The notes under the pieces were generated by a model. It searched no databases and had not been told where the DNA came from. It saw nothing but the letters and a program-made list of their open reading frames with translations. A stretch of DNA of 64,000 nt from Bacilli bacterium (GTDB taxonomy: Bacteria > Bacillota_I > Bacilli_A > RF39 > UBA660). Below, one piece after another: positions 1 to 41,314 of this stretch. A program made the translations under genes and the position numbers. Location: the NCBI GenBank assembly GCA_045649455.1, contig JAZRPV010000058.1:106-64105 (forward strand), in the 5' to 3' direction. Each line of letters starts with the position of its first letter. Position 1 is the first letter of the stretch.

Positions 1-557
1 TTACCACTACGTGAACCTAACATACAACTCATTAAACATTCTCCTGAGTATGAGATACATAAAGCTCCATGAATAAATACTTCTTTTTCTATTGGTGTTT
101 TAATTTGTTCTATTTCTTTAAGAGTCATTTCTCTTGAAAAGACAATTCTTTTTACACCAATACTATGATAAAATTCTGCAGTATCACGTGAAGATGTATT
201 TGCTTGAGTTGAAGCGTGAATTTCTAGTTCTGGATATTTTTCTCTTACTAAGCAAATCATACCAAAGTCTTGCATGATAAGAGCATCTACTCCACTCTTA
301 TATAAGAACTCTATTTGTCCTAGGAAGTATGGAACTTCTTCATCCTTTACTAGTGTATTCATTGTTACATATAATTTAACTCCATATAGATGACAAATTT
401 TTACGGCTTGTTGTATTTCATTGTTATCAAAATTTTTGGCAAATTTTCTAGCACCAAAGTTTTTGCAACCAATGTATACAGCATCTGCTCCATTTGCTAC
501 AGCTTGTGTTAAACATTGCATATCTCCTGCTGGTACTAATAATTCATGTTTTACCAT
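1..557 (-). CDS. Peptidase U32 family protein, N-terminal part (gene runs off the left edge)
   Basis: Not in the ORF track because no stop lies in the window. Minus-strand ATG at 557 is preceded by GAGGTGA. Translation MVKHELLVPAGDMQCLTQAVANGADAVYIGCKNFGARKFAKNF... is a typical U32 (collagenase-like) N-terminus. Confidence 0.7.
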   Translation of the reverse strand, partial: MVKHELLVPAGDMQCLTQAVANGADAVYIGCKNFGARKFAKNFDNNEIQQAVKICHLYGVKLYVTMNTLVKDEEVPYFLGQIEFLYKSGVDALIMQDFGMICLVREKYPELEIHASTQANTSSRDTAEFYHSIGVKRIVFSREMTLKEIEQIKTPIEKEVFIHGALCISYSGECLMSCMLGSRSG

Positions 558-22127: not shown

Positions 22128-22151
22128 ACTATTACTTCCCTTCTGGTTTTT

Positions 22152-22160
22152 ATTATAACA
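22152..22160 (-). promoter_or_regulatory. Candidate extended -10 promoter (TGTTATAAT) upstream of the VirD4-like gene
   Basis: TGnTATAAT lies in the 52-nt gap, about 25 nt upstream of the ATG at 22127. AT-rich background makes chance matches common. Confidence 0.3.
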
Positions 22161-22179
22161 TTAAGTTTATTTTATTTCA

Positions 22180-22956: not shown

Positions 22957-22969
22957 TAAATCACCCTAT

Positions 22970-25291
22970 TTATACTTTGTACCAAGCTAATGTACTTGTG
23001 TTTCTCCAATTATATTGACCCCACATGTCTGTTGATGAACTTCCTGGGTCCATCATTATGATTGTATCACCTTGAACGGCATCTATTGCTACCCAGTGTT
23101 GTCCTGTGTTACCTTTTACTTCGGCAACTACATAGTATCCAGCACTTAACATTTCTTTAATTTTGTTCATTTTTTGTTGTCTACTTTGACTATGGATATT
23201 TATTTGTCCTTGATAAATAAATCCTGGACATGCTTTTGTTGCAGCACCCCATACAAAGTTTCCACCACTTACAAATCCACCATTTCTATTTAAGAATTCT
23301 ACAAATGTTCCTGGGTTGAAATCACCTTGAATATTTGTTGGTAAACCGCTCTTGGCAATTAACATTGATACAGATGTTGCTAAACATCCAATTTGTTTAA
23401 TTGTTTTTCCACTGTTACCCATTGGTACGCCAATCCATGGACCTTCATATTGTTTCCAACTTGCAAATGGTCCAGTTGAAACCATTCCACATGCAGAATT
23501 GTTTCCTGAATTACATGCCATCTTTTGGATATCGGCTGCACCTGAGGCTCTTTTTCCAGTGTTATATATTTCCATTAATATTTGTTTATAATTATATCCT
23601 TGTTTTGCAAGTGCATTAAATTTATTTTGTTCTGTAGATGTATATCCTGTTGAAATAATATATCCGTTGGCATCTACTAATACTTCTCCTTGGGTTTCAG
23701 CAGCAGCTACTCTTATTACACTATCTGCTGGTAATGGATTTCCTCTATTTCTTCCACCTGGTACATGACCACTTACAACATAACCACCTTGGCCATCTCC
23801 ACCACCCATTGCTGTACATCCTTCATTGATGTTACAGAACACTTGGTCGGCTACGCATGATGAAATTTGTAATATCCATTGTCCGTTTTCTTGCTCTAAC
23901 TTTAATCCTCGAGCATTTCCCATCGCAGTAGGTCTAGCTAAAGCAAAGCTTCTTGCCGCTACCATTTGAGCTTTAATTGCTTCAATATGGAACGATGTTC
24001 CTACTTCGGCATAAGCAACTCCTGCTACATAATCTTCAAATGGAACTAAATCTTGATCAATTGGTGTTGTGTAATTTCCATTTCCATATTTACCACCACA
24101 TTGCATTAATCTAACCATTAAGTTAGAAATTTGTAATGCCTTAGTATATGTTCCACTTCCACCTATTCTAAATCCTTTTATATCATATATACATGTTCCT
24201 GTTGCAGCACATGTTGTTGAATCTTTTCCAATTAAATCAAAATATCTAGATATATAATCAAAGACATCTTCTGTCAATTGTTCTCTATCTGCTTGTGATT
24301 TTGTTGGGAAGTATTTTTTAAATATTTTATTTGTTAGATTTTGTTTAAATAAATCTTCATTATAACTATTACCTTGGAACATAGCATTTGCTATTTCTTG
24401 TAATCTGGCTTTAGTCATATATTTGTAATTATAATCAGGATTATTAACACTTAGAACGTGATAAACAGCTACAAGTTTAATTGTATCTACTGATTTACCT
24501 CGTGTTTGATAATCTAATTTAATATCATTTAATCTTTCATAGAAAGCTTTGGCATCTTTATTTTCTGGTTGGAAGTCAATTCCACCATTTTCTCCACCAC
24601 TATATGTTGCAGCTCCTAGGGCATCGTTATATTCTCCAATACTTCCAGAACCAGCACTAGCAACTACAGTAATTAATAGTATACCAACTAATCCTCCTAC
24701 GATAAGTCCTAGTATCATTTTTTGTTTGAAAGTTAATTTTGCTGAAAAGTTAAATCCACCTTTTGAAGAATCTTCATCAGCTTCTTCTCCTGGAGGTGTA
24801 TCATCTCCACCAAATGAACTACCAAAACCACCTGATTTTCCACCTAAAGCTCCAAGTCCTGATTTTTCTCCTCCACCTGATGGTGTTGATCCAGAACCCA
24901 TACTTGAAGCGGCTCCTCCTGCGGCATTTGCAGCTGCTCCACCAGTACCACCGGCTCCACCTTTACCGCCATACATATCAATTCCTTTGTCAACAGCATC
25001 TGTTACTCCTGAATCATTTAATTGTTTGGCAGCTTTACCCATTCCGGGCATTCTATTTAAGGCTTGTCCACCTTTATTTAATATCTGTTGTCCTGCTTTA
25101 GTATTGGCAAGTGCATCTACTGCTTTACCGCCAAGAGGGCCTGCATAGTATGTTGCGGCCCCTTTTGCGGCAGTCTTTAAAGCTTTTGCCGAAGCTTGTT
25201 GTTCTTGTTGTTTTTGACTTTGTTTTTCATCCATTGGCGATGCTTCATTGCCACTAAAATTTGAATTGTTTCTTCTACCTTCGTATGACAT
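22970..25291 (-). CDS. T4SS-associated cell-wall hydrolase: Gly-rich N-terminal region, TM, SpoIID/LytB-like domain, C-terminal papain-like Cys peptidase (C39-like/CHAP-like)
   Basis: About 195 aa of G/A/S-rich sequence, then TM ILGLIVGGLVGILLITVV. SpoIID-like EDYVAGVAYAEVG...IKAQMVAARSFAL. C-terminal IGCLATSVSML ... GQHWVAIDAV Cys/His pair. Confidence 0.75.
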   Translation of the reverse strand: MSYEGRRNNSNFSGNEASPMDEKQSQKQQEQQASAKALKTAAKGAATYYAGPLGGKAVDALANTKAGQQILNKGGQALNRMPGMGKAAKQLNDSGVTDAVDKGIDMYGGKGGAGGTGGAAANAAGGAASSMGSGSTPSGGGEKSGLGALGGKSGGFGSSFGGDDTPPGEEADEDSSKGGFNFSAKLTFKQKMILGLIVGGLVGILLITVVASAGSGSIGEYNDALGAATYSGGENGGIDFQPENKDAKAFYERLNDIKLDYQTRGKSVDTIKLVAVYHVLSVNNPDYNYKYMTKARLQEIANAMFQGNSYNEDLFKQNLTNKIFKKYFPTKSQADREQLTEDVFDYISRYFDLIGKDSTTCAATGTCIYDIKGFRIGGSGTYTKALQISNLMVRLMQCGGKYGNGNYTTPIDQDLVPFEDYVAGVAYAEVGTSFHIEAIKAQMVAARSFALARPTAMGNARGLKLEQENGQWILQISSCVADQVFCNINEGCTAMGGGDGQGGYVVSGHVPGGRNRGNPLPADSVIRVAAAETQGEVLVDANGYIISTGYTSTEQNKFNALAKQGYNYKQILMEIYNTGKRASGAADIQKMACNSGNNSACGMVSTGPFASWKQYEGPWIGVPMGNSGKTIKQIGCLATSVSMLIAKSGLPTNIQGDFNPGTFVEFLNRNGGFVSGGNFVWGAATKACPGFIYQGQINIHSQSRQQKMNKIKEMLSAGYYVVAEVKGNTGQHWVAIDAVQGDTIIMMDPGSSSTDMWGQYNWRNTSTLAWYKV

Positions 25292-25312
25292 TTACATCAC
25301 CTTACTTCTTTT

Positions 25313-27103
25313 CTAGAATCCTCCGCCTGAACCAAATGAATCTAATTCTTCTTTTGTTACGGCTACATTTATTCTCATACGACGAGAACCACATACGAAT
25401 AAAGCTTCTCCTTGAGAATAGTGTTTAATACTATCTTTTTCATTTTCATTTAAATCAATTAATTGACTTAAATCTTCAACTGCTTGTTTCTTTAATCCCA
25501 TTACTAAATAGTAAGAAGCATTATCGAAAATAGCTTTACCTTGAGTGATTACTGATGGTGCAGCAAAGTCACTAGGTTGTTGTGTAATGATAATTGTTCC
25601 TGTATTGTACTTACGAGCACGTCTTTGTACTTGAGCTAAGAAATCAGCTCCTAATACGTTATTTTCTCCTAATAACACGTGTGCTTCATCAATCATCATT
25701 ATTGTATCAATATTGTAATCTAAACATAGTCCCCATGCGAATTTAATTACATTAAAGAATAATGCATTTCTAATATTTGAATCAGTATTCATTAATTCTT
25801 TAATATTAAATACCATGAAGTCACTGTTTTTACGAATTGTTGTATGACCATTGAAATAGAATTGTAATTCTTTTGTTAATGGTCTTACTTTTAATTCAAG
25901 ACGTTCCATAATATCACGTTCTTGAGTCATATCTGTCATTGACATTAAACGACCTCTAATTGTTGCATATACGTCAGAGAATGTTGGATAATCTTTTGAT
26001 GTATAGTTTGAGAAATCTGTATTAAAGTCAATACCAAATCTTTTGTATGTATCTTGTACAACTTCACTAAACATTGTTAATACATCTTCTTGAATAGATG
26101 GATCATAATATTTCATGAAAGCTTTTAAGAATTGAAGTGTTCTTGTTAATACTGTGTATCCAAGACCTTGTTTAATTTCTTCTTCATCAGCATCTATAAT
26201 TACTTCTAATGGGTTAATTAAACCAAATTGTCCACCTTTACCGATGTCAACACAGTCTCCACCAAATGCTTTTGTAATTTCACGATATTCATCTTCTGGG
26301 TCAACTACTACGATTTGACAACCATTTCTGATATGTGTTCTTAACATTAATTTAGCTGCTGTAGATTTTCCTGATCCTGATGTACCAAGAATAATCATGT
26401 TAGCATTATTTCTGTTATGTTCTTTTCTTATCTTATATAAGAATTGATTAAATAAAATAACTCCTCCAGAGAAGTCTACTCCTAATAAAGTAGAAAGTCC
26501 TGGGTCTTTAATACTATCAAAAATAAATGGATACATTGCTGACATTGTTACTGATGGAATCGGTGTTCCAATTCTTTGTTCAATATCTTGAGATGGGAAA
26601 ATTGGTAAAATTGATTTTAATACCTTTTCTTGTTCAAAACGTAAAGATACAGCTTTTAATTCCATTGCATCTAAGTAGTTTTTAACATTTACTTTCTTCA
26701 TTTCAAGTTCTTCTTTTGTATCAGCAGTTATCATAATATGCATTTGGAAATCAAATACTTTTGATTGTCCACCTGCAATCATTGAAGTGAAGTATTCCAA
26801 ACTTTCAGCATCTTGTCTAATTCTTTCACGTACTGTTTGGTCTCTTTCAGTTCTATATCTTTCTTTCAAGTCTGCAACTTGTTTATTTAACATTTTAACC
26901 ATTTCTTGAAATGGTACGGGGATGTGTTTTACAACTATTTTAATCCCAGGCATATTTGTTAATGAAGATAAATATCCTGGAGTAATATATTTTGGCCATG
27001 ATACAACTGTTAAGATAGTTGCATATTTATCACTTATAAAAAATTCACTCGCCGAAAATTGTAATCCTTTTGGCGCTATTTGACTTCTTAATCCTGTACT
27101 CAT
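25313..27103 (-). CDS. VirB4-type T4SS ATPase, C-terminal 596-aa part
   Basis: Walker A GTSGSGKST, Walker B MMIDEAH and a typical Gram-positive VirB4 middle region (IAPKGLQFSASEFFISDKY...). The start overlaps the upstream ORF stop as ATGA. Confidence 0.88.
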   Translation of the reverse strand: MSTGLRSQIAPKGLQFSASEFFISDKYATILTVVSWPKYITPGYLSSLTNMPGIKIVVKHIPVPFQEMVKMLNKQVADLKERYRTERDQTVRERIRQDAESLEYFTSMIAGGQSKVFDFQMHIMITADTKEELEMKKVNVKNYLDAMELKAVSLRFEQEKVLKSILPIFPSQDIEQRIGTPIPSVTMSAMYPFIFDSIKDPGLSTLLGVDFSGGVILFNQFLYKIRKEHNRNNANMIILGTSGSGKSTAAKLMLRTHIRNGCQIVVVDPEDEYREITKAFGGDCVDIGKGGQFGLINPLEVIIDADEEEIKQGLGYTVLTRTLQFLKAFMKYYDPSIQEDVLTMFSEVVQDTYKRFGIDFNTDFSNYTSKDYPTFSDVYATIRGRLMSMTDMTQERDIMERLELKVRPLTKELQFYFNGHTTIRKNSDFMVFNIKELMNTDSNIRNALFFNVIKFAWGLCLDYNIDTIMMIDEAHVLLGENNVLGADFLAQVQRRARKYNTGTIIITQQPSDFAAPSVITQGKAIFDNASYYLVMGLKKQAVEDLSQLIDLNENEKDSIKHYSQGEALFVCGSRRMRINVAVTKEELDSFGSGGGF

Positions 27104-27657
27104 ACTGGCATCACCATTCCAAACTCTGTTGTGTCTCCCCCATTTAAGAAGTTATCCATAATAACTCTTAAGTCTGCATTGCTTGCTTGTGAAGCATTTA
27201 GTCCACAAGTAGCTAATCCATTAATCATCATTCTTACTCTTTTTTGTAAAAGTTCAGGGTCTTTTGCTCTGAATAAGAAATAATATTCTGTATCTACGAT
27301 ATTGTTATGAATAAATGTTTGTCCTTTTTCAATATCTTGTCTAATTAATTTTCTAATCGCTGGATTTTGTGTTTCATTGTAAAGTAGTTGCATTTGTGAC
27401 ATGTAAACAGAAATATCTACAGGTCTGTCGGCAACAACTAACCAGAACTCAAAATCTATCATATTATAAAAGTTCTTTAATCCTATTAATGTATTTTCTT
27501 GCGAAATACCATCTAAGATGAAGATATTTTTTGGAGATATCTTAACTCCTGCAACTTTATGATTATCACGTGTAATAATCATATTGTTTTGAATACCTCT
27601 TAAAGGTAACCAATCTTCAGTATAACCACTACTTGGTTTTTTTGTTTTTGTAGCCAA
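27100..27657 (-). CDS. VirB4 N-terminal-domain-like protein (separate 185-aa ORF, TTG start)
   Basis: YTEDWLPLRGIQNNMIITRDNHKVAGVKISPKNIFILD... resembles the extreme N-terminus of Firmicute VirB4 proteins. 185 + 596 aa adds up to about one normal VirB4 length. Confidence 0.6.
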   Translation of the reverse strand: MATKTKKPSSGYTEDWLPLRGIQNNMIITRDNHKVAGVKISPKNIFILDGISQENTLIGLKNFYNMIDFEFWLVVADRPVDISVYMSQMQLLYNETQNPAIRKLIRQDIEKGQTFIHNNIVDTEYYFLFRAKDPELLQKRVRMMINGLATCGLNASQASNADLRVIMDNFLNGGDTTEFGMVMPV

Positions 27658-27949
27658 CTTTATAGCACCAACCTTTCCAACGATATGTTTGTCTGTTTGT
27701 TAAAAACTCGTATAGTTCAATTATTATATTCAGTACATTATGATAATAAGGTACTGGTAGTACCAAGAACCCGCATATTATTGCAGGGCTCAATACTAAG
27801 ATTGTAATGATTGGTGATGACATATCTGTTGTTGCCATCATAAATAATGAAACTAATATTCCACCAGCAAGGATTGCTAAATCATGGGGTTTAAAGAACC
27901 CTAGAATTAGTTTTCCTCTTTTTGTATTAGCAGGAATTAAATAATTCAC
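27629..27949 (-). CDS. PrgI/VirB3-like small membrane protein (GTG start)
   Basis: 106 aa. IPANTKRGKLILGFFKPHDLAILAGGILVSLFMM plus a second TM, directly upstream of VirB4 as in pCF10 and Tn916-type systems. Confidence 0.6.
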   Translation of the reverse strand: MNYLIPANTKRGKLILGFFKPHDLAILAGGILVSLFMMATTDMSSPIITILVLSPAIICGFLVLPVPYYHNVLNIIIELYEFLTNRQTYRWKGWCYKVGYKNKKTK

Positions 27950-27972
27950 TTATATCACACTCCCTAATTTTA

Positions 27973-30024
27973 TTATTTTTTATTAGCTTGATTGTTAGCT
28001 CTTGCCATAATATTACGCATGTCAGTAGATTGATTTCTAACTGCATCATTAGCTTTTCCAATACTTCCACCGATAGAATCATATTCCATATATTCTCCAG
28101 TGTATGTTATTTCAGTATCAGCAAGCGCTTGTTTTGCATAACCCCAAGTATCTTGAAGTTTTCCATTTTTGAATTCATGTTTTGCAGAGTCGTAATCTTG
28201 TTGGATATATCTTGCTGCTTGTGCATCTTCGATACCCGCCATTACGTTAGAATCAAATTCACTAACATTGAATGTATGACTTCCACCATCAGCATCAACA
28301 TATGTGAAGTTTCCAGCTGTATCTTTTGCTTGCATAGAAGCAGAAAGTTTTGAATAGTTGAATTTGATTCCACCAAGTGATCCATATTTTGATGGATCCA
28401 AAACACCATAATCTCCTTTTTTCTTAGACTCATCAACAGCCATACTCTTGTATTTTTTAAGTGTATCTGCAGCTTTCTTATTGGCTTCAAGAATATTTTG
28501 ATTTTTAGTTGTAAGTGATTGTCCATGTAACATTCCATATGTACTATCTGCAAGACGACCACTATATGTTGAGTGGGCTGCTCTTTGCGCATTATGCTGT
28601 TGTAATGCTTTGATTGCAGCTCCAGCACGATGGTCTTTAGCATCCATCGCAGCTGACATACCTTTATATCCACCTGTAATTCCATTTAGTAAAGCTGAAC
28701 CTGCATTTCTAGCAAAATTGAATTTGCTTCCTGGATGTAACTCATTATTTTCTTCTTTTGCAGCTCTCCATCCAGCAGCAGCTGCTCCAACAGCTCCTGC
28801 TGCACCTACTCCAATACCAAATGCTTGTCCTAATCCTCCGAATAGTTTTCCACCATCGTCTTTCATACCAAATACTTGTTTAATGAACTTAGGTGCTTGT
28901 TTAGCGAATATGAATAATCCTAAGAATATAAAGATATATGTTAAGATTCCAACTATTCCTGTTGCTTGGTTAATTACTAATCCATTCTTTGTAATATCTT
29001 CTACTAAGAAAATTACGAAGTATATAATTGCTAAACGTAAGAATAAATCTAAATAAGTTGATGTTAATAATTTAGTCCATGAACTAAATGCTTGTTTTTC
29101 TCCACTTGGATCAATATAAGCAATAATTGGTATTGGTGCTAAAAGTCTTAATATAGCTAACTTAATAGCACGTACGGCAATATCAATTGTGAAGTTTAAT
29201 AAGATATAAACAAATACTCCACCTACTATTGCTGAAATTAATCCTCTATATGCGAACATATAACGTTGATTACTGTTAAATACTTTGGCAACTAATGATG
29301 CATCATCTGCATCACATTTTTTTGATGTTAGTCCAATTACTAATTCTGGATCAGCATATAGGTCTGTATAGATTTTCTTTGTATCTTCATCTAAATCTTT
29401 ACACATCCAGTTTGCTGATTTTGTTTCATCAGTCGCACCATCTTTTAAGTTTATTCGTATAAAACCTTTTAAAATTGTCGATGTAAATAAATTAGCTGAT
29501 TGTTGTAATTTTTGTGTCTGATTTTTATTTGAACCACCGGTTTGCACGGTATTACCACCGTCGTTTGTACCGAGTATTAATCTACCTAATGTATTGTTAG
29601 ATAAAATTCTGTTTTGTAACGAATATAATGTACCAAATAATAGACCATTATTATTAAGTTGAATTTCATATTCATTTCTTGCATTTGGTATATTAATTGG
29701 AGCAATGATTGTTAACATTACTAAAGAAAACATAATACGATATATTATATTTCCGAATCCTTCTTTTTTATCTACAAATGTGTCAGGATTAACGATACCT
29801 TTTACTATTGATACCGCTAATTTAAATATCATAAATACACCTAAGATTAATTGAACTCTACCATAGAAATTTTTTACAGTTTCATTAGTGAATAATTCTG
29901 CTGATGCAACATTAAAGAATATTTGATACATCAACCCTAATAACCAATATACAACTGTATCTAATAGACGATAAATAGTTCTAATTATGTCTCCCCAGAT
30001 GTTTGCTACTGTATTATCTGTCAA
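27973..30024 (-). CDS. VirB6/TrbL-like polytopic membrane protein with a ~270-aa soluble C-terminal extension (TTG start)
   Basis: At least six hydrophobic helices in the first ~400 aa, a G/A-rich segment (GGLGQAFGIGVGAAGAVGAAAAGW), then a hydrophilic tail. Positioned between the VirB2-like and VirB3-like genes. Confidence 0.6.
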   Translation of the reverse strand: MTDNTVANIWGDIIRTIYRLLDTVVYWLLGLMYQIFFNVASAELFTNETVKNFYGRVQLILGVFMIFKLAVSIVKGIVNPDTFVDKKEGFGNIIYRIMFSLVMLTIIAPINIPNARNEYEIQLNNNGLLFGTLYSLQNRILSNNTLGRLILGTNDGGNTVQTGGSNKNQTQKLQQSANLFTSTILKGFIRINLKDGATDETKSANWMCKDLDEDTKKIYTDLYADPELVIGLTSKKCDADDASLVAKVFNSNQRYMFAYRGLISAIVGGVFVYILLNFTIDIAVRAIKLAILRLLAPIPIIAYIDPSGEKQAFSSWTKLLTSTYLDLFLRLAIIYFVIFLVEDITKNGLVINQATGIVGILTYIFIFLGLFIFAKQAPKFIKQVFGMKDDGGKLFGGLGQAFGIGVGAAGAVGAAAAGWRAAKEENNELHPGSKFNFARNAGSALLNGITGGYKGMSAAMDAKDHRAGAAIKALQQHNAQRAAHSTYSGRLADSTYGMLHGQSLTTKNQNILEANKKAADTLKKYKSMAVDESKKKGDYGVLDPSKYGSLGGIKFNYSKLSASMQAKDTAGNFTYVDADGGSHTFNVSEFDSNVMAGIEDAQAARYIQQDYDSAKHEFKNGKLQDTWGYAKQALADTEITYTGEYMEYDSIGGSIGKANDAVRNQSTDMRNIMARANNQANKK

Positions 30025-30040
30025 TTTCCATCACCTCTTT

Positions 30041-30520
30041 TTACTCTAATCCACATGTTGGATCATTACTCATTCCAAATATATCTAGTATTGCTATTGT
30101 TATTGTTGGAACAAAGAATAATAATGCTATAAGTATTAATCTTGTGATTAATTTCTTTTGGGCTTTTTTCATTCCATCATCATCGCTTGTTATAATTACC
30201 TTGGCAAATTCTACACCACTTAATACAACAACAATTGCTGGTCCTAATGCTCTAATATAATTTAAAATTTGTTGTAATAACCACGCTACTGAATCAGGGT
30301 CACTAGTTGAACCTAAGATACTGTTATTACAGTCTGCTAATATTTGTACATTCTTATTTACAGTAGATGCTAAAAAGATGCTATCTTCTTGATACCATTT
30401 TTCTTCCACTTTATAACTTGTATTATTTTGATTATACTCTTTAGCATCAACGGATGCAGGCATAAATAATAACGTCATAATTAATACTACTGCAATGTAT
30501 AAAATACGTTTGTTTTTCAT
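30041..30520 (-). CDS. VirB2/TrbC-like pilin-type protein, long form (signal peptide + ectodomain + two-helix hairpin)
   Basis: Start set at the ATG at 30520 (GGAG upstream), giving signal peptide MKNKRILYIAVVLIMTLLFMPASVDA. The C-terminal hairpin VEFAKVIITSDDDGMKKAQKKLITRLILIALLFFVPTITIAILDIF is paralogous to 30609-30938. Confidence 0.6.
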   Translation of the reverse strand: MKNKRILYIAVVLIMTLLFMPASVDAKEYNQNNTSYKVEEKWYQEDSIFLASTVNKNVQILADCNNSILGSTSDPDSVAWLLQQILNYIRALGPAIVVVLSGVEFAKVIITSDDDGMKKAQKKLITRLILIALLFFVPTITIAILDIFGMSNDPTCGLE

Positions 30521-30566
30521 AAAAAGATCACTCCATATACATTTTATCACAATAAGTATAACAAAG

Positions 30567-30601
30567 AAAAAAAAAAATAGCAATGATACACTATTTTTTT
30601 T
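30567..30601 (-). other. A8...T11 inverted homopolymer hairpin between the two VirB2-like genes (weak attenuator or slippage-prone tract)
   Basis: On the minus strand: AAAAAAAATAG-TGTATCATTG-CTATTTTTTTTTTT. It is followed by a TGATAAAAT extended -10-like element at 30541-30549. Confidence 0.35.
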
Positions 30602-30608
30602 ATTGATA

Positions 30609-30938
30609 TTATTTTGCTTGATTCCAGCAAGCTTCCCATCCACCAGTATTTCCAGTTTCTCCTGCTGAAATTAAGTTCATTACAACTGTTACAAGAACTA
30701 CAACGAAATAAATAATTGCTGTATAAATAGCACGTTTAATAGCTCTTCCTTGAGCTGCTTTTACTTCTTTTTCATCACTTGCGATTACTGCTTTAGCAAT
30801 ATCAATTGTTACTAATAAAATAAGTACAATTGGCATGATTAAGTATAAAATCCAGAATAATCCTTTTCTTACTACTTTTACTAATGGTAATAATCCACCG
30901 CATGCATCAAGTGCTCCAATTTGAAATAAATTTGACAT
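30609..30938 (-). CDS. VirB2/TrbC-like pilin-type protein, short form
   Basis: Start set at the ATG at 30938 (AAAGGAGAGG upstream). 109 aa with two hydrophobic helices around a charged loop (IDIAKAVIASDEKEVKAAQGRAIKRAIYTAIIYFVVVLV) and Cys residues on both sides of the hairpin. Confidence 0.6.
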   Translation of the reverse strand: MSNLFQIGALDACGGLLPLVKVVRKGLFWILYLIMPIVLILLVTIDIAKAVIASDEKEVKAAQGRAIKRAIYTAIIYFVVVLVTVVMNLISAGETGNTGGWEACWNQAK

Positions 30939-30962
30939 ACAAACCTCTCCTTTACTAAGAAT

Positions 30963-30991
30963 ATCATACATTATAACATTTTCTTTGTCAA
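30963..30991 (-). promoter_or_regulatory. Candidate internal promoter upstream of the short VirB2-like gene
   Basis: TTGACA (30986-30991), 17-nt spacer, TATGAT (30963-30968), overlapped by an extended -10 TGTTATAAT (30970-30978). Confidence 0.45.
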
Positions 30992-30995
30992 TTAA

Positions 30996-32012
30996 TTAAC
31001 GTCTAAACAAACCAAATACCTTTGATTCTTTCTTTTCTACGGGTTTTTCAGATACTAATCCAAGTCGTCTTAGTAATTCAACAACCTCGTTATTTTGCTT
31101 ACGTTCATTAAGTGGTGGCATATTATAAAATACTTTTATTCCTGCTTCATATTCAAATTCGCTTAAATCCTTGCTGTTTAATAAACTTTTATTTAATACA
31201 ACTTTCTTATGTTTAAGTCGGTTGAATATACTTCTGTTAGTTTTTATTAACTTATTTAATTTTATTGTACTAGGTTCTACTAAGTAGATAACATCTGTAC
31301 ACATTGTTAAATCATCGTAATCAGCTATATCAACTAATAAAATTGCTCTTCCACGATATTTTTCAATTGTAGCTCTTATACTATCAGGATTTACTGATAA
31401 CATATTTTTTTCATTGAAAATTGGAAAATCTTTTTTATTAATTTCCATGGCTATTACTTTTTCACCATAAATAGCATTTAATTCCTTTTTCATCATATAT
31501 GTTAATGTTGTGGAACCGGCATGCTCTGTAGCATTTTTTACACCGATAATTGTATTCATAGCGAATGTTGCATCTTTTTTTTCTTCAGTTTTATCAGGTT
31601 GTTTATTAGGATCTCTAATTACTCCTCCACCACCCATTTTTTGGATATGCTCTACATCTTGTAAGGTGTTTGGTTTTTTTAATAAATATTTAACACCATC
31701 TGTATTAGTTGTAAAGTTATAAATTCCTAATGTTACAAGTGGTGCTAAAAATTGAGGAGTACACAAATTAGTTCCTTCAGGTAAGAATAAAACTAATTTT
31801 TCTGGACCTAAACCTCTTGCTAAAACTTGGTATGCTTGAATATTATTGTAATCTTTTATTGATGTTACGTCTAAAATAATTTTTTCGCAGAAGAAATCTT
31901 TAAACATTTCTACTATTTCGAATGCTGTATAATTACCTTGAATATTTTTGATTATATCAACATCTAATACTGCTAATTTTTGTTGTTGTTCATTTGTTAC
32001 TATAACGTTCAA
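30996..32012 (-). CDS. TadZ/CpaE-like protein (receiver-like N-domain + ParA/MinD-like domain with degenerate P-loop), TTG start
   Basis: The N-terminal ~120 aa is receiver-like. The C-terminal domain has the ParA/MinD layout (IIGVKNATEHAGSTTL ... AILLVDIADYDD ... YLVEPS ... VVLNK) but no GK[ST]. Confidence 0.5.
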   Translation of the reverse strand: MNVIVTNEQQQKLAVLDVDIIKNIQGNYTAFEIVEMFKDFFCEKIILDVTSIKDYNNIQAYQVLARGLGPEKLVLFLPEGTNLCTPQFLAPLVTLGIYNFTTNTDGVKYLLKKPNTLQDVEHIQKMGGGGVIRDPNKQPDKTEEKKDATFAMNTIIGVKNATEHAGSTTLTYMMKKELNAIYGEKVIAMEINKKDFPIFNEKNMLSVNPDSIRATIEKYRGRAILLVDIADYDDLTMCTDVIYLVEPSTIKLNKLIKTNRSIFNRLKHKKVVLNKSLLNSKDLSEFEYEAGIKVFYNMPPLNERKQNNEVVELLRRLGLVSEKPVEKKESKVFGLFRR

Positions 32013-32018
32013 GAATCA

Positions 32019-32477
32019 TCACCATCCAATTACTATTGGTTTTGTATCACCAGTTACTTGGAATATTTTAAGTCCTGGCATTATTTTATTGAAAATTGGT
32101 ATATCAATATTAATTTGTGTTACTATTTTGAAATAGGCTCTTTGCTTCATATCATCATTTGGCCCACCTGCTGTTGTAGTTATATCTACTCTTTTGAAAC
32201 AATAACCATAATGGCAGTTCCATCCTGGTTCATTTATATTGAAGCTTGGTGCATTGTATCCTACTGAAGCCATATATTTTTGGATTTCATAGTTACAAGT
32301 TCCTTCTGTTGCTGTATCATAACAGTTCCCTTCAAATTGTTCAAATGTAGTTATAATCTTATTTTTTACCCTAAATGCTTTTGTATAGTTAACATTGAAT
32401 GCTAAATATCCAGAAACGATTACAAGGAAAACAACGATTACCACGATATTGGCAATACCTCCAAAAGCATCACGCAT
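32019..32477 (-). CDS. TadE-like / minor-pilin-like membrane-anchored protein
   Basis: Short N-terminus plus a hydrophobic helix (MRDAFGGIANIVVIVVFLVIVSGYLAF) and a 4-Cys ectodomain, immediately downstream of the Flp-like ORF. Confidence 0.45.
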   Translation of the reverse strand: MRDAFGGIANIVVIVVFLVIVSGYLAFNVNYTKAFRVKNKIITTFEQFEGNCYDTATEGTCNYEIQKYMASVGYNAPSFNINEPGWNCHYGYCFKRVDITTTAGGPNDDMKQRAYFKIVTQINIDIPIFNKIMPGLKIFQVTGDTKPIVIGW

Positions 32478-32498
32478 CTATAATACACCCTCTTTTTA

Positions 32499-32666
32499 CT
32501 AAATTTGTCTTTCGATCGCTACCATTCCAGTACCTGAAATGTTTTGCCATTGTGTATTCAAAGAATTTTGAATATTTGGCCACATTAACCAGAAAAATCC
32601 GATTACTGCTCCGATAGCTATTAATGTAATAACTGTTAAATTTAATTCTCCTGTTGCTGCTTGCAT
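32499..32666 (-). CDS. Flp/Tad-type pilin candidate, 55 aa (absent from the ORF track)
   Basis: ATG at 32666 with AAAGGATG upstream, TAG at 32499-32501. Translation by hand: MQAATGELNLTVITLIAIGAVIGFFWLMWPNIQNSLNTQWQNISGTGMVAIERQI. Short leader ending in Gly, one hydrophobic helix, and its own promoter. Confidence 0.6.
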   Translation of the reverse strand: MQAATGELNLTVITLIAIGAVIGFFWLMWPNIQNSLNTQWQNISGTGMVAIERQI

Positions 32667-32697
32667 TAAATTTCACATCCTTTCATCCTATGATTAA

Positions 32698-32726
32698 ATT
32701 ATATCAAAATTAAATTTTATTAACAA
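32698..32726 (-). promoter_or_regulatory. Near-consensus internal promoter driving the Flp-like ORF
   Basis: TTGTTA (32721-32726), 17-nt spacer ending in TGA, then TATAAT (32698-32703), i.e. an extended -10 TGATATAAT, about 32 nt upstream of the ATG. Confidence 0.55.
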
Positions 32727-32742
32727 TAATTTTAGTTTTACT

Positions 32743-33549
32743 TTACATATTGAACATCATCATCATTGCAATTAGGATAATTATCATTACACCAACTCCA
32801 GTTACAACTAACATAATCATTGTTTGGCTTTCCATATATCCTAGACGTTCTTTATATTTAGTTTCTCTTGCTTTATTTTGTAATGATGAAACTGTCTTTG
32901 AGAACATCATTAAACGTTCTTGTTTCTTTTCTTGAGAACCTAATCCAAGACGATATAAAAGTCTCATCATACGCATTGAATCTCTTACTGGGTATGTATT
33001 TGCAAATTCCATATAAGGTTCAATTGTTGAATCTCCAGAATTAATTCTATCAATTAATTTTCTTAGACCAGGTCTAAAGATTTCTGGAGCATCCTCTATT
33101 GATTTTCCTAGCGCTACTGGTACAGTGTAGTGTTGAATCAAAATTTCCAAACTCTTTAAATAGTATGGTAACATTATGTCAATTTCATGCAAATGTTTTT
33201 TATAATAACCTTTTAATTGTGTATAATTACTTTTAAACATGAAATATGCTACTACTGTAGATAACACTAAATTTAGGAAGAATTGTGATGACATTAGTCC
33301 ACCAGATGATCCTCCTAATGAAAATGCTAATACCATGAAGAATGCTATGATTGCAGATGATATTCTTTTCGAATATAAAATATCTGCATCAGCTTCTTCA
33401 CCATATCTAGCGGCAACTAAGAATGAATAATCTTCTTCTCTTAGCATTTCTAATAATTTTTCATTGTCGGCAAAGAATTTATTTTTATCGATGGTTTTGT
33501 TATATGATAATACAAATAATATTATCGCTGCTACTATTAATATTTCCAT
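32743..33549 (-). CDS. TadC-like T2SS-F family inner-membrane platform protein
   Basis: TM helices flank a cytoplasmic GspF-like domain (LPYYLKSLEILIQHYTVPVALGKSIEDAPEIFRPGLRKLIDRINSGDSTIEPYMEFA...). The ATG overlaps the upstream stop (TAATG). Confidence 0.65.
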   Translation of the reverse strand: MEILIVAAIILFVLSYNKTIDKNKFFADNEKLLEMLREEDYSFLVAARYGEEADADILYSKRISSAIIAFFMVLAFSLGGSSGGLMSSQFFLNLVLSTVVAYFMFKSNYTQLKGYYKKHLHEIDIMLPYYLKSLEILIQHYTVPVALGKSIEDAPEIFRPGLRKLIDRINSGDSTIEPYMEFANTYPVRDSMRMMRLLYRLGLGSQEKKQERLMMFSKTVSSLQNKARETKYKERLGYMESQTMIMLVVTGVGVMIIILIAMMMMFNM

Positions 33550-34451
33550 TATTCAGCACCTACATTCTCATTATAATATTTTTCTCCTCTTAATAAGAAG
33601 TATGTATTTATAATTAATACTCCGTGAAGAAGTACTTGTATATACCATCTTTGTAATAAAATAATATAAGTTTCTCTACCTAATAAATATTGTACAATCA
33701 TAACCATTAAATAAAGAATAATTCCGAATTGTAAGAATTGTTTATGGAATTGTTGTCTTTCAATACGGTCACGATATACACTTTCAATTAACATGTCGAT
33801 ATCTAATTGCATGTTATCTAATGAATCAGCACTATTACGTGCACCTTCTTTTGTAATTTGTAAGAATAATTGGTGCATGTTTTTAACTATATAATATGGG
33901 TATTTTTCACTCATATAGTTAACTGCTTCATCAATTGTACCATTGTCATATGATAATTCAATCATGTATGCTACATCACTTAATACTGGATCTTCTAAGA
34001 TTCCTGAATCTCTTACACCTTCTAGTGCTTTAACAAATGATTGAGTTGTAGCAAATTCCATAATAACGTTTGATGTATATACTTGGATTTGCTCAAAAAT
34101 ATATTCACTATATACTCTCTTACATCTTAGATATGCTAAATATGGCACAAAAGCCATTGATACTAAAACATAGACAACTGTTGTTGTTACACTATAGAAG
34201 TATAGATATGTAACAATTCCAGTAAATCCTGATATCATGGCTATTTGCATTGCATATTGTCTTGGAGTATATTCTTGTCCTAACTCTTTTGTTTTATCAC
34301 GAACCATTTTGAAGGAATATGGAGCAAATTTGTCATAGACAACTTGTACTTGTGATGTAATATACTTTCCAACGTTTTGTCCTTGATAGTTACGATACAT
34401 TATTAAAGCTACGGCAATGGCAATTAATATTAATAACTCTTCTAAAAACAT
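33549..34451 (-). CDS. TadB-like T2SS-F family inner-membrane platform protein
   Basis: GspF-like domain (FATTQSFVKALEGVRDSGILEDPVLSDVAYMIE...IDEAVNYMSEKYPYYIVKNMHQLFLQITKEGA) flanked by TM helices. Confidence 0.65.
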   Translation of the reverse strand: MFLEELLILIAIAVALIMYRNYQGQNVGKYITSQVQVVYDKFAPYSFKMVRDKTKELGQEYTPRQYAMQIAMISGFTGIVTYLYFYSVTTTVVYVLVSMAFVPYLAYLRCKRVYSEYIFEQIQVYTSNVIMEFATTQSFVKALEGVRDSGILEDPVLSDVAYMIELSYDNGTIDEAVNYMSEKYPYYIVKNMHQLFLQITKEGARNSADSLDNMQLDIDMLIESVYRDRIERQQFHKQFLQFGIILYLMVMIVQYLLGRETYIILLQRWYIQVLLHGVLIINTYFLLRGEKYYNENVGAE

Positions 34452-37123: not shown

Positions 37124-37630
37124 TTAATCTGTTAATTCTGTTTTCTTTTTAACTTGATTGTTACTACGTTTGTCTAAAGCTTTACCCATATCATCATTTA
37201 AGTCTCCTAATGATTTTTCTGTAAATAAATCTTCTGTATATGTTGTTTCAAGAATTGAATCAACACTAGTTGAGATGTTTGCAGCTGATCCTGAGAAGCT
37301 TAATGCTGTTAATGAGTCAATTTTAACACTTACTTTAGGTGGAACTTCATTAATATCATAAAAACTAATATTATAAGTTCTTGTGTTATCTACACTATCA
37401 GCAAATCGACGAAGGAAGCTCTCAATGAACTTCTCCTTGTCGATTCTATATAATGAGTTAAGTCGATAGAATTCCATATCTACTGAATCTTCCATAGCGG
37501 CTTCAACTGTTTCTTTTACTAAGTAGTAGTCTAATTCTCCACCTGTTGAATAGTTTGTAATAACGTTAATTAGTAATAGTGCCATGATTGCTAGCATAAT
37601 TACTCCTACTGTTAACATACCCTTGTTCAT
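37124..37630 (-). CDS. Bitopic membrane protein, pseudopilin-like N-terminus
   Basis: MNKGMLTVGVIMLAIMALLLINVI helix followed by a ~140-aa soluble domain. No family recognised. Confidence 0.45.
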   Translation of the reverse strand: MNKGMLTVGVIMLAIMALLLINVITNYSTGGELDYYLVKETVEAAMEDSVDMEFYRLNSLYRIDKEKFIESFLRRFADSVDNTRTYNISFYDINEVPPKVSVKIDSLTALSFSGSAANISTSVDSILETTYTEDLFTEKSLGDLNDDMGKALDKRSNNQVKKKTELTD

Positions 37631-37647: not shown

Positions 37648-40485
37648 CTATTCGTTATTTACACCAGGAGAACCAATTGTTACAACTGCTTTTGTATCTA
37701 ATATATTTGGTTCTTCTCCAACAATTCTAAATAAGTTACTTTGATATGACATAACTCCGTTGATTGATGAAGTGTCTCCTAGCCATTCTGTATAGTTATA
37801 TTTTTTATTATATCTTCTTAATGTTGTTAAATCTGAAGGTGTTAATGTGAATTCATAATCTGGATCTTCTGCATAAATTGAATCAGCATTTGCTTCAATT
37901 GATTCTTTTAAGTCTTCTGGATTAATCTTATATTTATCATTCTTTTGACTTAAGATTGTTGCTTTTGATGTCCAGTTGAATCCGATTTCTCTACGTTGAG
38001 CTTCAGTTACATTCATTCCACTATTAGGGAATAGGTTTCCTCTATCTACAGCTCTAATAATATATCCTGCAGTTTCTTCAATTTCATCAGGTGCTGCTGC
38101 AGCTCCTCTTCCTCCAGGTTGATTATTAATTGCGTAGAAACATTTTGTTGTTAAATCCCATCCGAAGTATCCAAAGTCTTTAGCAATTGCTTCAATGTTG
38201 TATCCATCAGATGTTCCTGTTTTAGCTGTTACTGCTGGTGCAGTTCCAACTCCATTATTTGTAACTTTCCATGTCCACCAGTTTGCATTTACTGTTTTTG
38301 CATTTAGTGGGATACAGAATTTTTTATTTTCTAAATACCATCCTGATAAATCATCTGGTGTTGAGAATGAAATTTCACCAGTCTTATTATTGATGTAAGT
38401 TCCTGGGAATCCCCATTCTGTTAAGTACCATCTATTGTTATCTGAACTTGCATAACATCCATCATAATCAATTATTGTACTTGAATCATTTTTAAATCCA
38501 ATTCCATCAGTGAATGTATCTTTTGCTAATGCGTTATATTCATTAGTTCCTTCATTTGGATTTGTTTTATGTTGTGAGTTTGAAGTATATGGATAATATA
38601 CTTTATGAACTGTATATGGTTCTTCTCCATCTTTAGTATCATACTTAACTGCAATTGTGAATGTTGCTGTTTTCTTTGAACATGTTGCAGCAGCTTTACA
38701 AGCACTTACTGCACTGTTATATAATTCAATATTCTTAGCGTCATCAGCTACTCCTGAACCTGGGTTAAGGTATCTTCCTCTTGCAACTGTTTCGCCTCTC
38801 CACCAACAGATATCTGTACATAAGCTTCCGTTAGATTTTATTTGACGTTTAAATCCATTTTCATCAGCAATATAGTTAACTCCATTGATCTTCATAGATA
38901 GTCCTCTACCTGAATCAATGTAGAAACGAGATAATGATGCTGGATCATAACGATCGTATGTATTTGGATCTTCTCTCCAGAAAATTTCATCTCCAGATCT
39001 AATGAAGCATCCATCTGGGTTATCAATTAAACATTGATCTAATGTGTAATTAATTTTTGAAATTCCATTATTTGCTACGTTAGCATAATTAATTTTTAAA
39101 TTTTTATTATCTTTATAAACTTGTTTATAACATTTTAAACTACAACTTTGTGTGTACTTTCCACCGTCACAGTTTTTAATACATCTTTCAAAGTCTTCTG
39201 TTGGACCGGCTCTAGGATATGGTCTCATTTTGTTTTCTTGTGACTTACAAGCTCCTTCAGGATAATCATATTGTCCGTCATATGTTTTTGGTTTTGAATC
39301 GGCTTTTACGTCTGCGCTACATTTTACATAACTTTCAACTTTAACTGTATATTCGAAACATAATCCAGCTTTAGAAGCTACTGGTGGACCATATTCTACT
39401 TTTACAGCTTCTTCACAAACTCTATCACATACAGTTTTTGTTACTTTTTCTACATCACCAGGTGCATAGTTATATGTATATTCTACTGTTTGTGAATCAG
39501 TAATTTGTGTTGAATAATAACTTTGTGATGCTCTTTCAGTTTGAGTTGTTGCACACTTAGTTTCATATGATAATGCTGTTCCTTTTGGAACTGGTGCAGT
39601 TAATGTACCATTTGTTTTTCCTGCCGCAATTGCCGCATTTTTAATAGCATTAAATGTTTCATTGAAACTTGCTGTTCCACCAGATACTGGTGTTGAGTAT
39701 TGTTTCCAGATTGAAATGGCATCTCCAATCATTTCTGTTAATTTTTTATCGTCATATACATGATTTTTATTAACTCTAGCATTGAAACAATAAGGAATTA
39801 ATTCTGCATAGTATTGTTTTCCTTCTTGAGATACTGCTGCATAGTTATATTTATCAAAATCATCTTTCTTTATTACTGTGATTGAATTAAATTGATTTGT
39901 ATCATAAACTCCTGTAATAAAGTTTGTACAAATTTTACCAGGACCTACATGCGGATTATCAATTGTTTGGTCACCTTGATAAATGCTTGCTGTTCCTCCG
40001 ATCATTGCTTCATATTCTAAGTCAATATAGAAGATACTGTATTCCATATTATTAGTTTTAGCATATTCTTCATCATCTAATCCTAAACATCCAGCTTGGA
40101 TATCAGTAGTTTTCATTGTTACTTCAACTGCTGCTTTTCCATTTACTGCATCAATATTTAAGTATAGCGGTTGATCTTTTTTGATGATACCTAATGTATT
40201 GATATCTCCAACTAATGTTCCTGAAGTAACTTTTGTTACTTTAAATTCAGTATCTCCAGCATCACTACCATTTACATCAATGATGTATTGATTTCCTGCT
40301 GCATCAACTTTTCTTAACTCTAAATCATATTTTGATGAAATTGTAGATATATTACATTTACTTTCATATTTTTGTAATCTTTCTTCTTGTGTTTCTGCTA
40401 AAACGTCATATCCAAATGTAACTAATCCAATTGCTGCAACTGCTGCTGTTAATTTAAATAACTTTTTACATTTCAACATTTTCAT
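37648..40485 (-). CDS. Large secreted Cys-rich protein (candidate adhesin or fibre-tip protein)
   Basis: Sec signal peptide (MKMLKCKKLFKLTAAVAAIGLVTFGYDVLA/ETQ). 945 aa with about two dozen Cys, often in close pairs (CDRVCEE, CIKNCDGG...CSLKC, CLIDNPDGC, CTDIC, CKAAATC). No LPXTG or TM tail. Confidence 0.6.
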   Translation of the reverse strand: MKMLKCKKLFKLTAAVAAIGLVTFGYDVLAETQEERLQKYESKCNISTISSKYDLELRKVDAAGNQYIIDVNGSDAGDTEFKVTKVTSGTLVGDINTLGIIKKDQPLYLNIDAVNGKAAVEVTMKTTDIQAGCLGLDDEEYAKTNNMEYSIFYIDLEYEAMIGGTASIYQGDQTIDNPHVGPGKICTNFITGVYDTNQFNSITVIKKDDFDKYNYAAVSQEGKQYYAELIPYCFNARVNKNHVYDDKKLTEMIGDAISIWKQYSTPVSGGTASFNETFNAIKNAAIAAGKTNGTLTAPVPKGTALSYETKCATTQTERASQSYYSTQITDSQTVEYTYNYAPGDVEKVTKTVCDRVCEEAVKVEYGPPVASKAGLCFEYTVKVESYVKCSADVKADSKPKTYDGQYDYPEGACKSQENKMRPYPRAGPTEDFERCIKNCDGGKYTQSCSLKCYKQVYKDNKNLKINYANVANNGISKINYTLDQCLIDNPDGCFIRSGDEIFWREDPNTYDRYDPASLSRFYIDSGRGLSMKINGVNYIADENGFKRQIKSNGSLCTDICWWRGETVARGRYLNPGSGVADDAKNIELYNSAVSACKAAATCSKKTATFTIAVKYDTKDGEEPYTVHKVYYPYTSNSQHKTNPNEGTNEYNALAKDTFTDGIGFKNDSSTIIDYDGCYASSDNNRWYLTEWGFPGTYINNKTGEISFSTPDDLSGWYLENKKFCIPLNAKTVNANWWTWKVTNNGVGTAPAVTAKTGTSDGYNIEAIAKDFGYFGWDLTTKCFYAINNQPGGRGAAAAPDEIEETAGYIIRAVDRGNLFPNSGMNVTEAQRREIGFNWTSKATILSQKNDKYKINPEDLKESIEANADSIYAEDPDYEFTLTPSDLTTLRRYNKKYNYTEWLGDTSSINGVMSYQSNLFRIVGEEPNILDTKAVVTIGSPGVNNE

Positions 40486-41302
40486 CTACTCCTTTCATCA
40501 AGTTCTTTACTTCTTTGTAATTTGAACTTTCTTTTACTTCATAGTTTGTAGTTTTTGAATTATTATCAATCATCTTACCTACAACTAAGAATTGTTTTTT
40601 ATCATTACCATACATTCTTGTACATGTAATTAAACTTATTACTTTTTCATCTTTATTTACTTCTACATCGTATTTATATAGACTCTTATCTAAACTTCTT
40701 TGAATAAAATCAGCTACTTCTTCATCTTTATATTCATCTGGATTATATAAATCTAAGTTATATATTTCATCAAAATATACTGCGAAAATTTGATATAAAT
40801 AATTCTTTCCATCTATTGTATATTGAATATATTGATTTTCTTTAGCAAAGTCTAAATATACAAATGCCATTAAATCTTCAAATCTTGTAAAGTAGTCTAG
40901 TCCTACTTCTGGTTTTGTTGAAAGATTTAATACATTGTGTCCTTGAATATTTACTCTCTTTTGGATTTTTTCTTCTGGATATTCGTTCCATAGGTAATCA
41001 TCCTTATTAACTTTATCCATACTTTCTACTGAGTCATATTTAATGATTGGTGTATCTATTTTAGTACCTTGAACTCTTAACCAACCAATTGTTGTATAGC
41101 CGTTTTCATTTTTTTCTTTTTTCTTTTCTTTTTTTATGTTTTTAACTCTATCAACTGTTTTAAAAGTTGATGATGTTGCATTATTTGAAAAGTATACTAT
41201 CAATCCTACTGGAATCGATACTACCAAGATAAATGCTAAACATGCTAGAACTAACCTTGCAAGTTGTCGTTTTTGCTTTTTTGTCAGTCTCTTCTTTGCC
41301 AT
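40466..41302 (-). CDS. Class B sortase-like protein (catalytic Arg position apparently Gln)
   Basis: N-terminal TM, TIGWLRVQGTKIDTPII, His motif NIQGHN, Cys motif SLITCTR. The residue aligned by eye to the SrtB catalytic Arg (K-R-IVVV) reads K-Q-FLVV. Confidence 0.6.
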   Translation of the reverse strand: MAKKRLTKKQKRQLARLVLACLAFILVVSIPVGLIVYFSNNATSSTFKTVDRVKNIKKEKKKEKNENGYTTIGWLRVQGTKIDTPIIKYDSVESMDKVNKDDYLWNEYPEEKIQKRVNIQGHNVLNLSTKPEVGLDYFTRFEDLMAFVYLDFAKENQYIQYTIDGKNYLYQIFAVYFDEIYNLDLYNPDEYKDEEVADFIQRSLDKSLYKYDVEVNKDEKVISLITCTRMYGNDKKQFLVVGKMIDNNSKTTNYEVKESSNYKEVKNLMKGVDENVEM

Positions 41303-41314
41303 TTTCTCACCTTC

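Follow-up and report, generated by a model that had tools for sequence, protein, structure and literature searches.

A 55-residue helix-only candidate pilin encoded between a Tad-like module and a chromosomal type IV secretion system in uncultured gut Bacilli

The locus

The window, i.e. the whole stretch of 64,000 nucleotides that we analysed, carries a block at ~18.5-44.8 kb (18500-44800) between housekeeping genes, with Lon, trigger factor, AspRS, GatA/B and RmuC on one side and GreA, U32 peptidases, MltG and RuvX on the other. Along the minus strand the order is a sortase-like gene, a 945-aa surface protein, DUF5411, a CpaB/RcpC-like protein, a T2SSE ATPase and two polytopic proteins of 300 aa and 268 aa, then genes for proteins of 55, 152 and 338 aa, and finally the genes of a type IV secretion system (T4SS): two VirB2-like proteins of the T4SS_pilin type, a TrbL/VirB6-like protein, a VirB3-like protein of 106 aa, a 185-aa protein, a VirB4-like protein, a SpoIID-type hydrolase, a 258-aa protein and a VirD4 coupling protein. 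The features discussed below are as follows.

37124-37630, minus strand: DUF5411 protein (PF17424 at 3e-47), beginning with MNK(G/A) and then a hydrophobic segment
36300-37106, minus strand: CpaB/RcpC-like protein, a weak match to PF16976 and TIGR03177
34465-36261, minus strand: secretion ATPase of the T2SSE family (TadA/CpaF/VirB11-like), PF00437 at 2e-27
33549-34451, minus strand: 300-aa polytopic membrane protein in the TadB position, placed by synteny
32743-33549, minus strand: 268-aa polytopic membrane protein in the TadC position, placed by synteny in 78 of 80 loci
32499-32666, minus strand: 55-aa gene, putative major pilin (open reading frame, family conservation, AF2 helix)
32470-32676, minus strand: overlapping 68-aa ORF with a GTG start, spurious by its stops and pN/pS in 81 loci
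32019-32477, minus strand: 152-aa protein, candidate minor pilin (MRDAFG start, predicted fold, co-transcription)
30996-32012, minus strand: 338-aa protein with no Pfam match, always after the 55-aa/152-aa pair
19845-30971, minus strand: T4SS module of the monoderm type (Pfam and NCBIfam; fixed synteny with the 55-aa gene)

The 55-aa gene lies in a gap of 265 nt between the stop of the 268-aa polytopic gene at 32743 and the start of the 152-aa gene at 32477. It opens with an ATG at 32666, ends with a TAG at 32499-32501 and encodes MQAATGELNLTVITLIAIGAVIGFFWLMWPNIQNSLNTQWQNISGTGMVAIERQI; the coordinates, codon count and translation given in the original prediction are correct.

The 55-codon frame is the gene

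The 55-aa ORF is a genuine, conserved and transcribed gene, and the overlapping 68-aa ORF, whose product is basic and of low complexity, is not. We compared the reading frames over the ungapped first 44 codons in 81 homologous loci. The variable sites fall at codon positions 1, 2 and 3 of the 55-aa frame in the numbers 23, 13 and 38, and its pN/pS is 0.21. The two alternative frames have values of 1.45 and 2.11 and carry stops in 81 and 79 of the 81 loci. The 68-aa frame is interrupted by internal stops in 79 of the 81 loci and has a pN/pS of 2.1. Since the alternative frames are full of stops and their pN/pS is high across the 81 loci, we regard the 68-aa ORF as an accident of one sequence. 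The choice of the 55-aa frame in the original prediction is thus borne out by the comparison. An Rfam scan of 31800-33000 gave no match.

A public call for the gene exists (P0001, 59 aa, beginning MWNLMQAATG...). Its additional start lies at window positions 32666-32678, with the ATG inside the Shine-Dalgarno sequence. P0001 was called with genetic code 4, because the codon TGA after its ATG was read as Trp. Trp in the 55-aa gene of the window is encoded by TGG, and TGA terminates only 3 of the 55 long ORFs of the window, which fits code 11.

A promoter of its own

The gene has its own promoter and ribosome-binding site, both conserved, and RNA contigs indicate that transcription begins about there, as originally predicted. 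The elements are the following.

32721-32726, minus strand: -35 hexamer TTGTTA, TTG kept in 99-100% of 81 loci at a fixed spacing of 17 nt
32698-32706, minus strand: extended -10 element TGATATAAT, TGnTAYAMT in 81 of 81 loci
32676-32691, minus strand: inferred transcription start zone, ~7-20 nt after the -10 element, from the ends of metatranscriptome contigs
32673-32683, minus strand: Shine-Dalgarno sequence AAAGGATGTGA, GAAAGGAkGTG conserved in 81 loci

The TATAAT at 32703-32698 is directly preceded by TGA and is separated by a spacer of 17 nt from the TTGTTA at 32726-32721. A lone match of this kind carries little weight, because the DNA is AT-rich (29% G+C) and such matches do not exceed chance: we counted 43 promoter-like sites in 8 kb, with 50.6 expected from shuffled sequences. 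The promoter of the 55-aa gene is conserved far above chance. The near-consensus elements lie where they had been predicted and are kept in 81 of 81 loci; in 80-81 of them the TTG and the -10 hexamer are separated by exactly 17 nt, the spacer positions drift without constraint, and an A-rich stretch lies upstream. In the 110 nt upstream of the gene, all 80 genome loci and 61 of 63 divergent metagenome loci have the pattern TTGnnn-16..18-TAnAMT, compared with 3.6% (genome) and 5% (metagenome) of random 110-nt windows from the same loci.

The ribosome-binding site AAAGGATGTGA is a near-perfect site of the Bacillus type at optimal spacing: it agrees at 10 of 11 positions with AAAGGAGGTGA, the Shine-Dalgarno sequence of Bacillus type, and its GGATG stands 9 nt from the ATG.

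The RNA data consist of assembled contigs of related strains, with 88-99% identity to the window, from bovine, pig and other gut metatranscriptomes. Whole contigs span the 55-aa gene, in some cases together with the 152-aa gene, and they end at 32676, 32684, 32686 and 32691 in four runs from two studies; one further contig ends at 32709 and another reads through from upstream. Compared with the upstream gene, the 55-aa and 152-aa genes are covered at a 3- to 10-fold contig depth. Together the ends and the depth indicate a start near 32691 and high expression; this evidence is supportive rather than decisive, as it comes from assembled contigs of related strains and not from raw reads.

A large family in uncultured gut Bacilli

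The 55-aa protein belongs to a large, unnamed family of helix-only proteins. A protein search found at least 718 clusters (90% identity) of homologues 49-66 aa long, and a full HMMER scan covering 1.84 billion representatives gave 516 clusters at 50% identity. Across the family the length ranges from 35 to 107 aa, with a median of 57. A scan with one genome per species detected relatives in 164 species-level genomes, from which we retrieved 80 genome loci, and we added 83 further divergent loci. The host genomes are all uncultured gut Bacilli of the RF39-like kind, labelled Bacilli, Tenericutes, Mollicutes, 'Mycoplasma sp. CAG' or Candidatus Faecimonas.

The literature on RF39 and pili, T4SS, VirB4 or Tad, as far as our search reached, does not describe the family or the locus. 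Where public annotations give the family a name, it is 'hypothetical', and at least one of the public calls was made with the wrong genetic code. An HMM for the family could readily be built and would keep the gene from being lost to a spurious overlapping ORF.

Anatomy of the protein

The window protein consists of a six-residue N-terminus (MQAATG), the pair Gly6-Glu7, a hydrophobic helix at ~10-30, a polar half at 31-44 and a variable tail. AF2 with the family alignment predicts one uninterrupted helix from residue 10 to 44, with a block-mean pLDDT of 91-97 for residues 11-40, and no structure for residues 1-9 and the tail, in keeping with the originally proposed size and shape of a helix-only pilin.

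The family is nearly invariant at its N-terminus, MK(A/E)ATGELN(L/M)TV(I/V)T, and A4, G6, E7, L8, T11 and T14 are invariant in two independent alignments. Beyond about residue 44 both sequence and length vary, with total lengths of 48-107 aa among the aligned proteins, and the longer tails are rich in Cys. The tail has no Cys in 209 of 275 family members, and 58 of the 66 tails with Cys hold an even number, which suggests disulfides and hence a C-terminus facing outwards. The positive-inside rule leaves the topology unfixed, because the net charge of the N-terminus is 0 or -1.

The leader shares one feature with those of type IV pilins, namely a short N-terminus ending in the invariant Gly6 and followed by a hydrophobic helix. 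It is otherwise atypical in the way first described, with Glu directly after Gly and no G/xxxxEY. The Glu at mature position +5 of bacterial type IV pilins is absent; if cleavage occurs after Gly6, the invariant Glu7 becomes +1, and it would become +5 only by a cut after Lys2, for which there is no precedent. Having no net positive charge is also unusual for a class III signal peptide.

Tests against known families

The protein has the build of an Flp pilin, i.e. 40-90 aa, helix-only, with a hydrophobic N-half, a polar C-half and no globular domain. 'Flp-like', as it was called, holds for this shape and size and does not extend to sequence. Flp pilins are cleaved after Gly, with xxxxEY following (PMC10710030). 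The family reads MKAATG-ELNLTV, with Glu at +1 and no Tyr, against Glu5 and Tyr6 in the Flp motif. The window protein has no match in Pfam or NCBIfam at E<=0.1, and none of 30 family members matches any pilin model at E<=10, including Flp_Fap, Flp1_like, PF18895 and PF04956. A profile search of the PDB sequences returned only chance matches to transmembrane helices and no solved pilin, and Foldseek of the AF2 helix against the PDB returned 0 matches, a result that is uninformative for a lone helix. We therefore reject membership in Flp/Fap (PF04964; Flp1_like, PF16982), given the missing HMM match, the missing G/xxxxEY and the absence of a prepilin peptidase nearby.

As for such a peptidase, Pfam finds no Peptidase_A24 among the 56 window proteins scanned, and no hydrophobic ORF with a GxGD-K motif is found in the window or in the 2.16 Mb around 163 related loci (within 8-10 kb).

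Identity with VirB2, TrbC or T4SS_pilin proteins fails as well, because the 55-aa protein is a single helix rather than a two-helix hairpin and matches neither PF04956 nor PF18895. We also dropped the readings as a TatA-like protein, a holin-like protein or a signal-peptidase-I substrate, which have no motif or HMM match and do not fit the locus.

The only intramembrane protease seen in the window is a rhomboid at 53898-55046. Rhomboids reportedly can trim short N-terminal extensions of small single-pass proteins, as Providencia AarA does with TatA; a role of this rhomboid in processing the 55-aa protein is pure speculation.

The Tad-like neighbours

The neighbourhood resembles a Tad locus to different degrees from gene to gene. 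The T2SSE ATPase matches by sequence, and the polytopic pair fits by position, size and membrane character only. The ATPase matches the VirB11, TadA-family and FlaI models, all below their curated cut-offs, and the best NCBIfam match is VirB11 with 116 bits. The CpaB/RcpC-like protein also stays below the cut-offs, with 25.4 bits against 28.8 for PF16976 (1.4e-5) and 34.9 bits against 71 for TIGR03177 (9.4e-9). The proteins in the TadB and TadC positions have no T2SSF, Pfam or PDB match, and a profile search of one against the other was not significant either. We observed in addition that the ATPase has a C-terminal extension of ~240 residues, of low complexity and rich in Pro, Glu, Thr and Val, which is unusual for TadA/CpaF/VirB11 ATPases.

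The 152-aa protein is a candidate minor pilin. It starts with MRDAFGG, its Gly6 is invariant, and it has four (nearly) invariant Cys positions. Folded with an alignment of database homologues, it shows two helices, the N-terminal one long and the next one short, and then 4 strands, an order like that of pilins, and in RNA contigs its gene is co-transcribed with the 55-aa gene. Pfam gives no match and Foldseek of the model nothing below E=0.48. 'TadE-like', the first label of this protein, is unconfirmed for want of a significant Foldseek match, and 'TadC-like', that of its 268-aa neighbour, likewise finds no support from sequence or Foldseek. A start of the form M(K/R)xAxG is common to the 55-aa and 152-aa proteins, whose N-termini hhalign aligns in register, only at E=0.056. 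With DUF5411, three proteins of the locus therefore share a very short N-terminus that ends in Gly or Ala before a hydrophobic helix. A TadZ-like role for the 338-aa protein is only a guess. Two tandem paralogues of the 152-aa gene occur in the related loci L033, L035, L039 and L042 (about 8150-9120).

Upstream of the Tad-like genes, at 37648-44786, we noted the 945-aa protein, which is a Cys-rich surface protein, a protein with a weak sortase domain, a 636-aa Ig-like surface protein and a 516-aa DUF4352 protein. Conservation in related loci extends to the 945-aa protein and the sortase-like gene. The four proteins could be tip adhesins or wall-anchored partners.

Coupling to a type IV secretion system

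The 55-aa gene is tied to the VirB4/VirB6/VirD4 module at least as tightly as to the Tad-like module, a coupling that the original prediction did not mention. The gene order is kept in 80 of 80 genome loci as far as each contig extends, and in 78 of the 80 the ATPase and the two polytopic genes directly precede the 55-aa gene. Among the divergent metagenome loci, 54 are informative: the ATPase and platform genes stand directly before the small gene in 38, further upstream in 6, and in 10 they are absent from the available 6-10 kb upstream. The position first described, after the two polytopic genes of the TadB/TadC positions and before the protein of pilin-like order, applies almost always.

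In the ten loci with no Tad-like module within 6-10 kb upstream (L081-L083, L086, L111, L112, L116, L121, L128 and L129), the small gene comes first in the T4SS operon and directly follows housekeeping genes, e.g. rimM and trmD. L081-L083 carry the small gene twice in tandem, with products of 86 and 75 aa that have Cys-rich tails, and their operon continues with two minor-pilin-like genes, a 348-aa gene, a T4SS_pilin protein, which in L081 also matches PF18895, a VirB6-like gene, VirB4 and the hydrolase. In L128 and L129, tblastn with the T4SS proteins of the window detects no T4SS gene downstream of the 338-aa homologue. Our analysis suggests, therefore, that the small gene, the minor-pilin-like gene and the 338-aa gene always travel with the T4SS, and that the Tad-like module is usually, not always, adjacent. 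The tandem paralogues of L081 lie at 10001-11518.

The combined Tad-like and T4SS block looks like a chromosomal, lineage-wide machine rather than a typical ICE. Pfam finds no relaxase or integrase in the window. PLSDB plasmids have no DNA or protein match to the locus, the 55-aa protein or the TadB-position protein, and thus give no sign of a plasmid origin.

Within the T4SS module, the 120-aa protein at 30609-30971 has a weak PF18895 match. The same domain (PF18895, 2.8e-7) occurs together with an NlpC/P60 peptidoglycan hydrolase domain in a 306-aa protein at 50209-51129, ~5 kb outside the locus among housekeeping genes.

Channel subunit or filament subunit

This linkage admits the hypothesis that the protein is a small single-pass membrane subunit of the T4SS, a structural or gating part of the VirB4/VirB6 channel that does not polymerise, so that the adjacency of Tad-like genes is a matter of operon packing. 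It accords with the constant place of the 55-aa, 152-aa and 338-aa genes before the T4SS genes, with the 10 of 54 informative loci that have no Tad-like module in view, and with the lack of a pilin-family match and of a peptidase nearby. The expression data point the other way, since a dedicated strong promoter and a higher RNA depth fit a structural subunit made in bulk. So do the invariant N-terminal helix with its hypervariable, sometimes Cys-paired tail, which is typical of surface-exposed pilins, the tandem paralogues, and the place of the gene directly after the ATPase and platform genes in most lineages. We consider a channel subunit unlikely.

The protein could also be a pilin of the T4SS itself, assembled by the VirB4 machinery as a functional analogue of VirB2/TraA, with the upstream ATPase acting as VirB11. 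The best NCBIfam match of the ATPase, the linkage to VirB4 in all loci and the loci with no Tad-like module nearby would all agree with such a role. VirB2-type pilins, however, are two-helix hairpins and the 55-aa protein is a single helix; the locus already holds two T4SS_pilin-like proteins, and PF18895 and PF04956 do not match the small protein. We rate an assembly by VirB4 as distinctly improbable.

The conserved N-terminus and the variable, often Cys-rich C-terminal part could also be read as the leader and the core of a precursor from which a secreted or modified peptide is made, as in bacteriocins or RiPPs. This is hardly credible: the conserved part is a transmembrane helix of ~20 residues and not a soluble leader, most members have no Cys in the tail, and in the locus Pfam recognises neither modifying enzymes nor an ABC exporter nor an immunity gene.

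A Tad-like filament as the best explanation

We conclude that the 55-aa protein is probably the major subunit of a helix-only filament of the Tad-like (type IVc-like) kind, coupled to a chromosomal T4SS of the monoderm type. The resemblance to Tad pilins is one of shape, size, genomic position and expression signature, not of sequence, and the pilin function, the processing and the assembly route are all inferred. In the mechanism that we propose, a sigma-A promoter of its own, lying within a long operon, would drive the gene at a high level along with that of the 152-aa minor-pilin-like protein. The hydrophobic half of the helix would insert the protein into the membrane with the tail outside, perhaps with a cut behind the invariant Gly6. 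Lifting the subunit from the membrane and polymerising it would then fall to the T2SSE ATPase and the two platform-position proteins, and the polar half of the helix and the variable tail would form the surface of the filament. The filament probably serves the adjacent chromosomal VirB4/VirB6/VirD4 system, e.g. in cell contact.

We tentatively put forward a bolder version, which we regard as rather doubtful: the family may be a new kind of pilin that forms a helix-only filament with neither a canonical prepilin peptidase nor Glu5, is left unprocessed or is cut by a different protease, and builds the pilus by which a monoderm T4SS that is chromosomal, relaxase-less and lineage-wide in uncultured gut Bacilli makes contact or carries out transfer. 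If this peptidase-less reading is true, the whole locus would be a hybrid machine of pilus and T4SS that is undescribed for secretion systems of the Gram-positive type. If a filament is formed at all, the family would be a new pilin family missed by current HMM libraries, with a leader that breaks the Gly/xxxxE rule, and it would offer a handle on how uncultured gut Bacilli contact other cells or exchange DNA.

Comparison with known systems

One close likeness is to the Flp/PilA pilins of Tad (type IVc) pili, e.g. Aggregatibacter Flp1 and Caulobacter PilA, which are also very small single helices with a hydrophobic N-half and a polar C-half. The gene neighbours correspond as well, the T2SSE ATPase by sequence, the two polytopic proteins by position and the CpaB-like protein by a weak match, and a larger pilin-like protein comes next. 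In the Caulobacter Tad pilin the helix is hydrophobic and then polar, and the polar half is the filament surface (PMC10710030). The 55-aa protein differs in having no HMM match, Glu directly after Gly, no Glu5-Tyr6 and a leader of 6 residues with no net positive charge. Its locus has no tadV/cpaA peptidase, whereas Gram-positive tad operons often start with tadV (PMC12786226), and the proteins in the platform positions are unrecognisable as T2SSF.

Archaeal type IV pilins and archaellins, with class III signal peptides processed by PibD/FlaK, share the short leader ending in Gly, the lack of a requirement for Glu5 and the continuous N-terminal helix. Usual in archaeal pilins are also a globular domain rich in beta structure and, at -2, a basic residue. 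We found no sequence match between them and the 55-aa protein, and Tad systems are thought to derive from archaeal pili (PMC10710030).

A DUF5411/CpaF/PilC-like system has been predicted in gut Clostridia, with no pilin named (Miller et al. 2022, PMC9523054). It has in common with our locus DUF5411, an ATPase of the CpaF family and neighbouring surface proteins. The module in the window differs in being fused to a T4SS and in having a specific small pilin candidate that can be named.

The T4SS side of the locus has a parallel in Patescibacteria, where a chromosomal, relaxase-less MPF-FATA T4SS comes with arrays of VirB2-like pilins (PMC12102498). Both are lineage-wide chromosomal systems of the monoderm type in small genomes, with T4SS_pilin-type proteins near virB4 and no relaxase nearby. 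The difference is that no Tad-like module or single-helix pilin next to virB4 is reported there; the word 'Tad' occurs 0 times in PMC12102498.

The thin type IVb pilus of the IncI plasmid R64 works alongside a conjugative T4SS and aids cell contact (PMC12102498), and it is thus a case of a type IV filament encoded together with a T4SS. R64 is a plasmid of diderms with the classical pilins PilS and PilV, in contrast to our locus, which is chromosomal, belongs to monoderm Bacilli, shows no relaxase and encodes a helix-only candidate pilin. T4SSs of the monoderm (Gram-positive) type are generally said to have no pili and to rely on adhesins (PMC12102498). Here a conserved, strongly promoted, helix-only pilin candidate and a Tad-like module are joined to such a T4SS in at least 164 species-level genomes of an abundant uncultured gut lineage.
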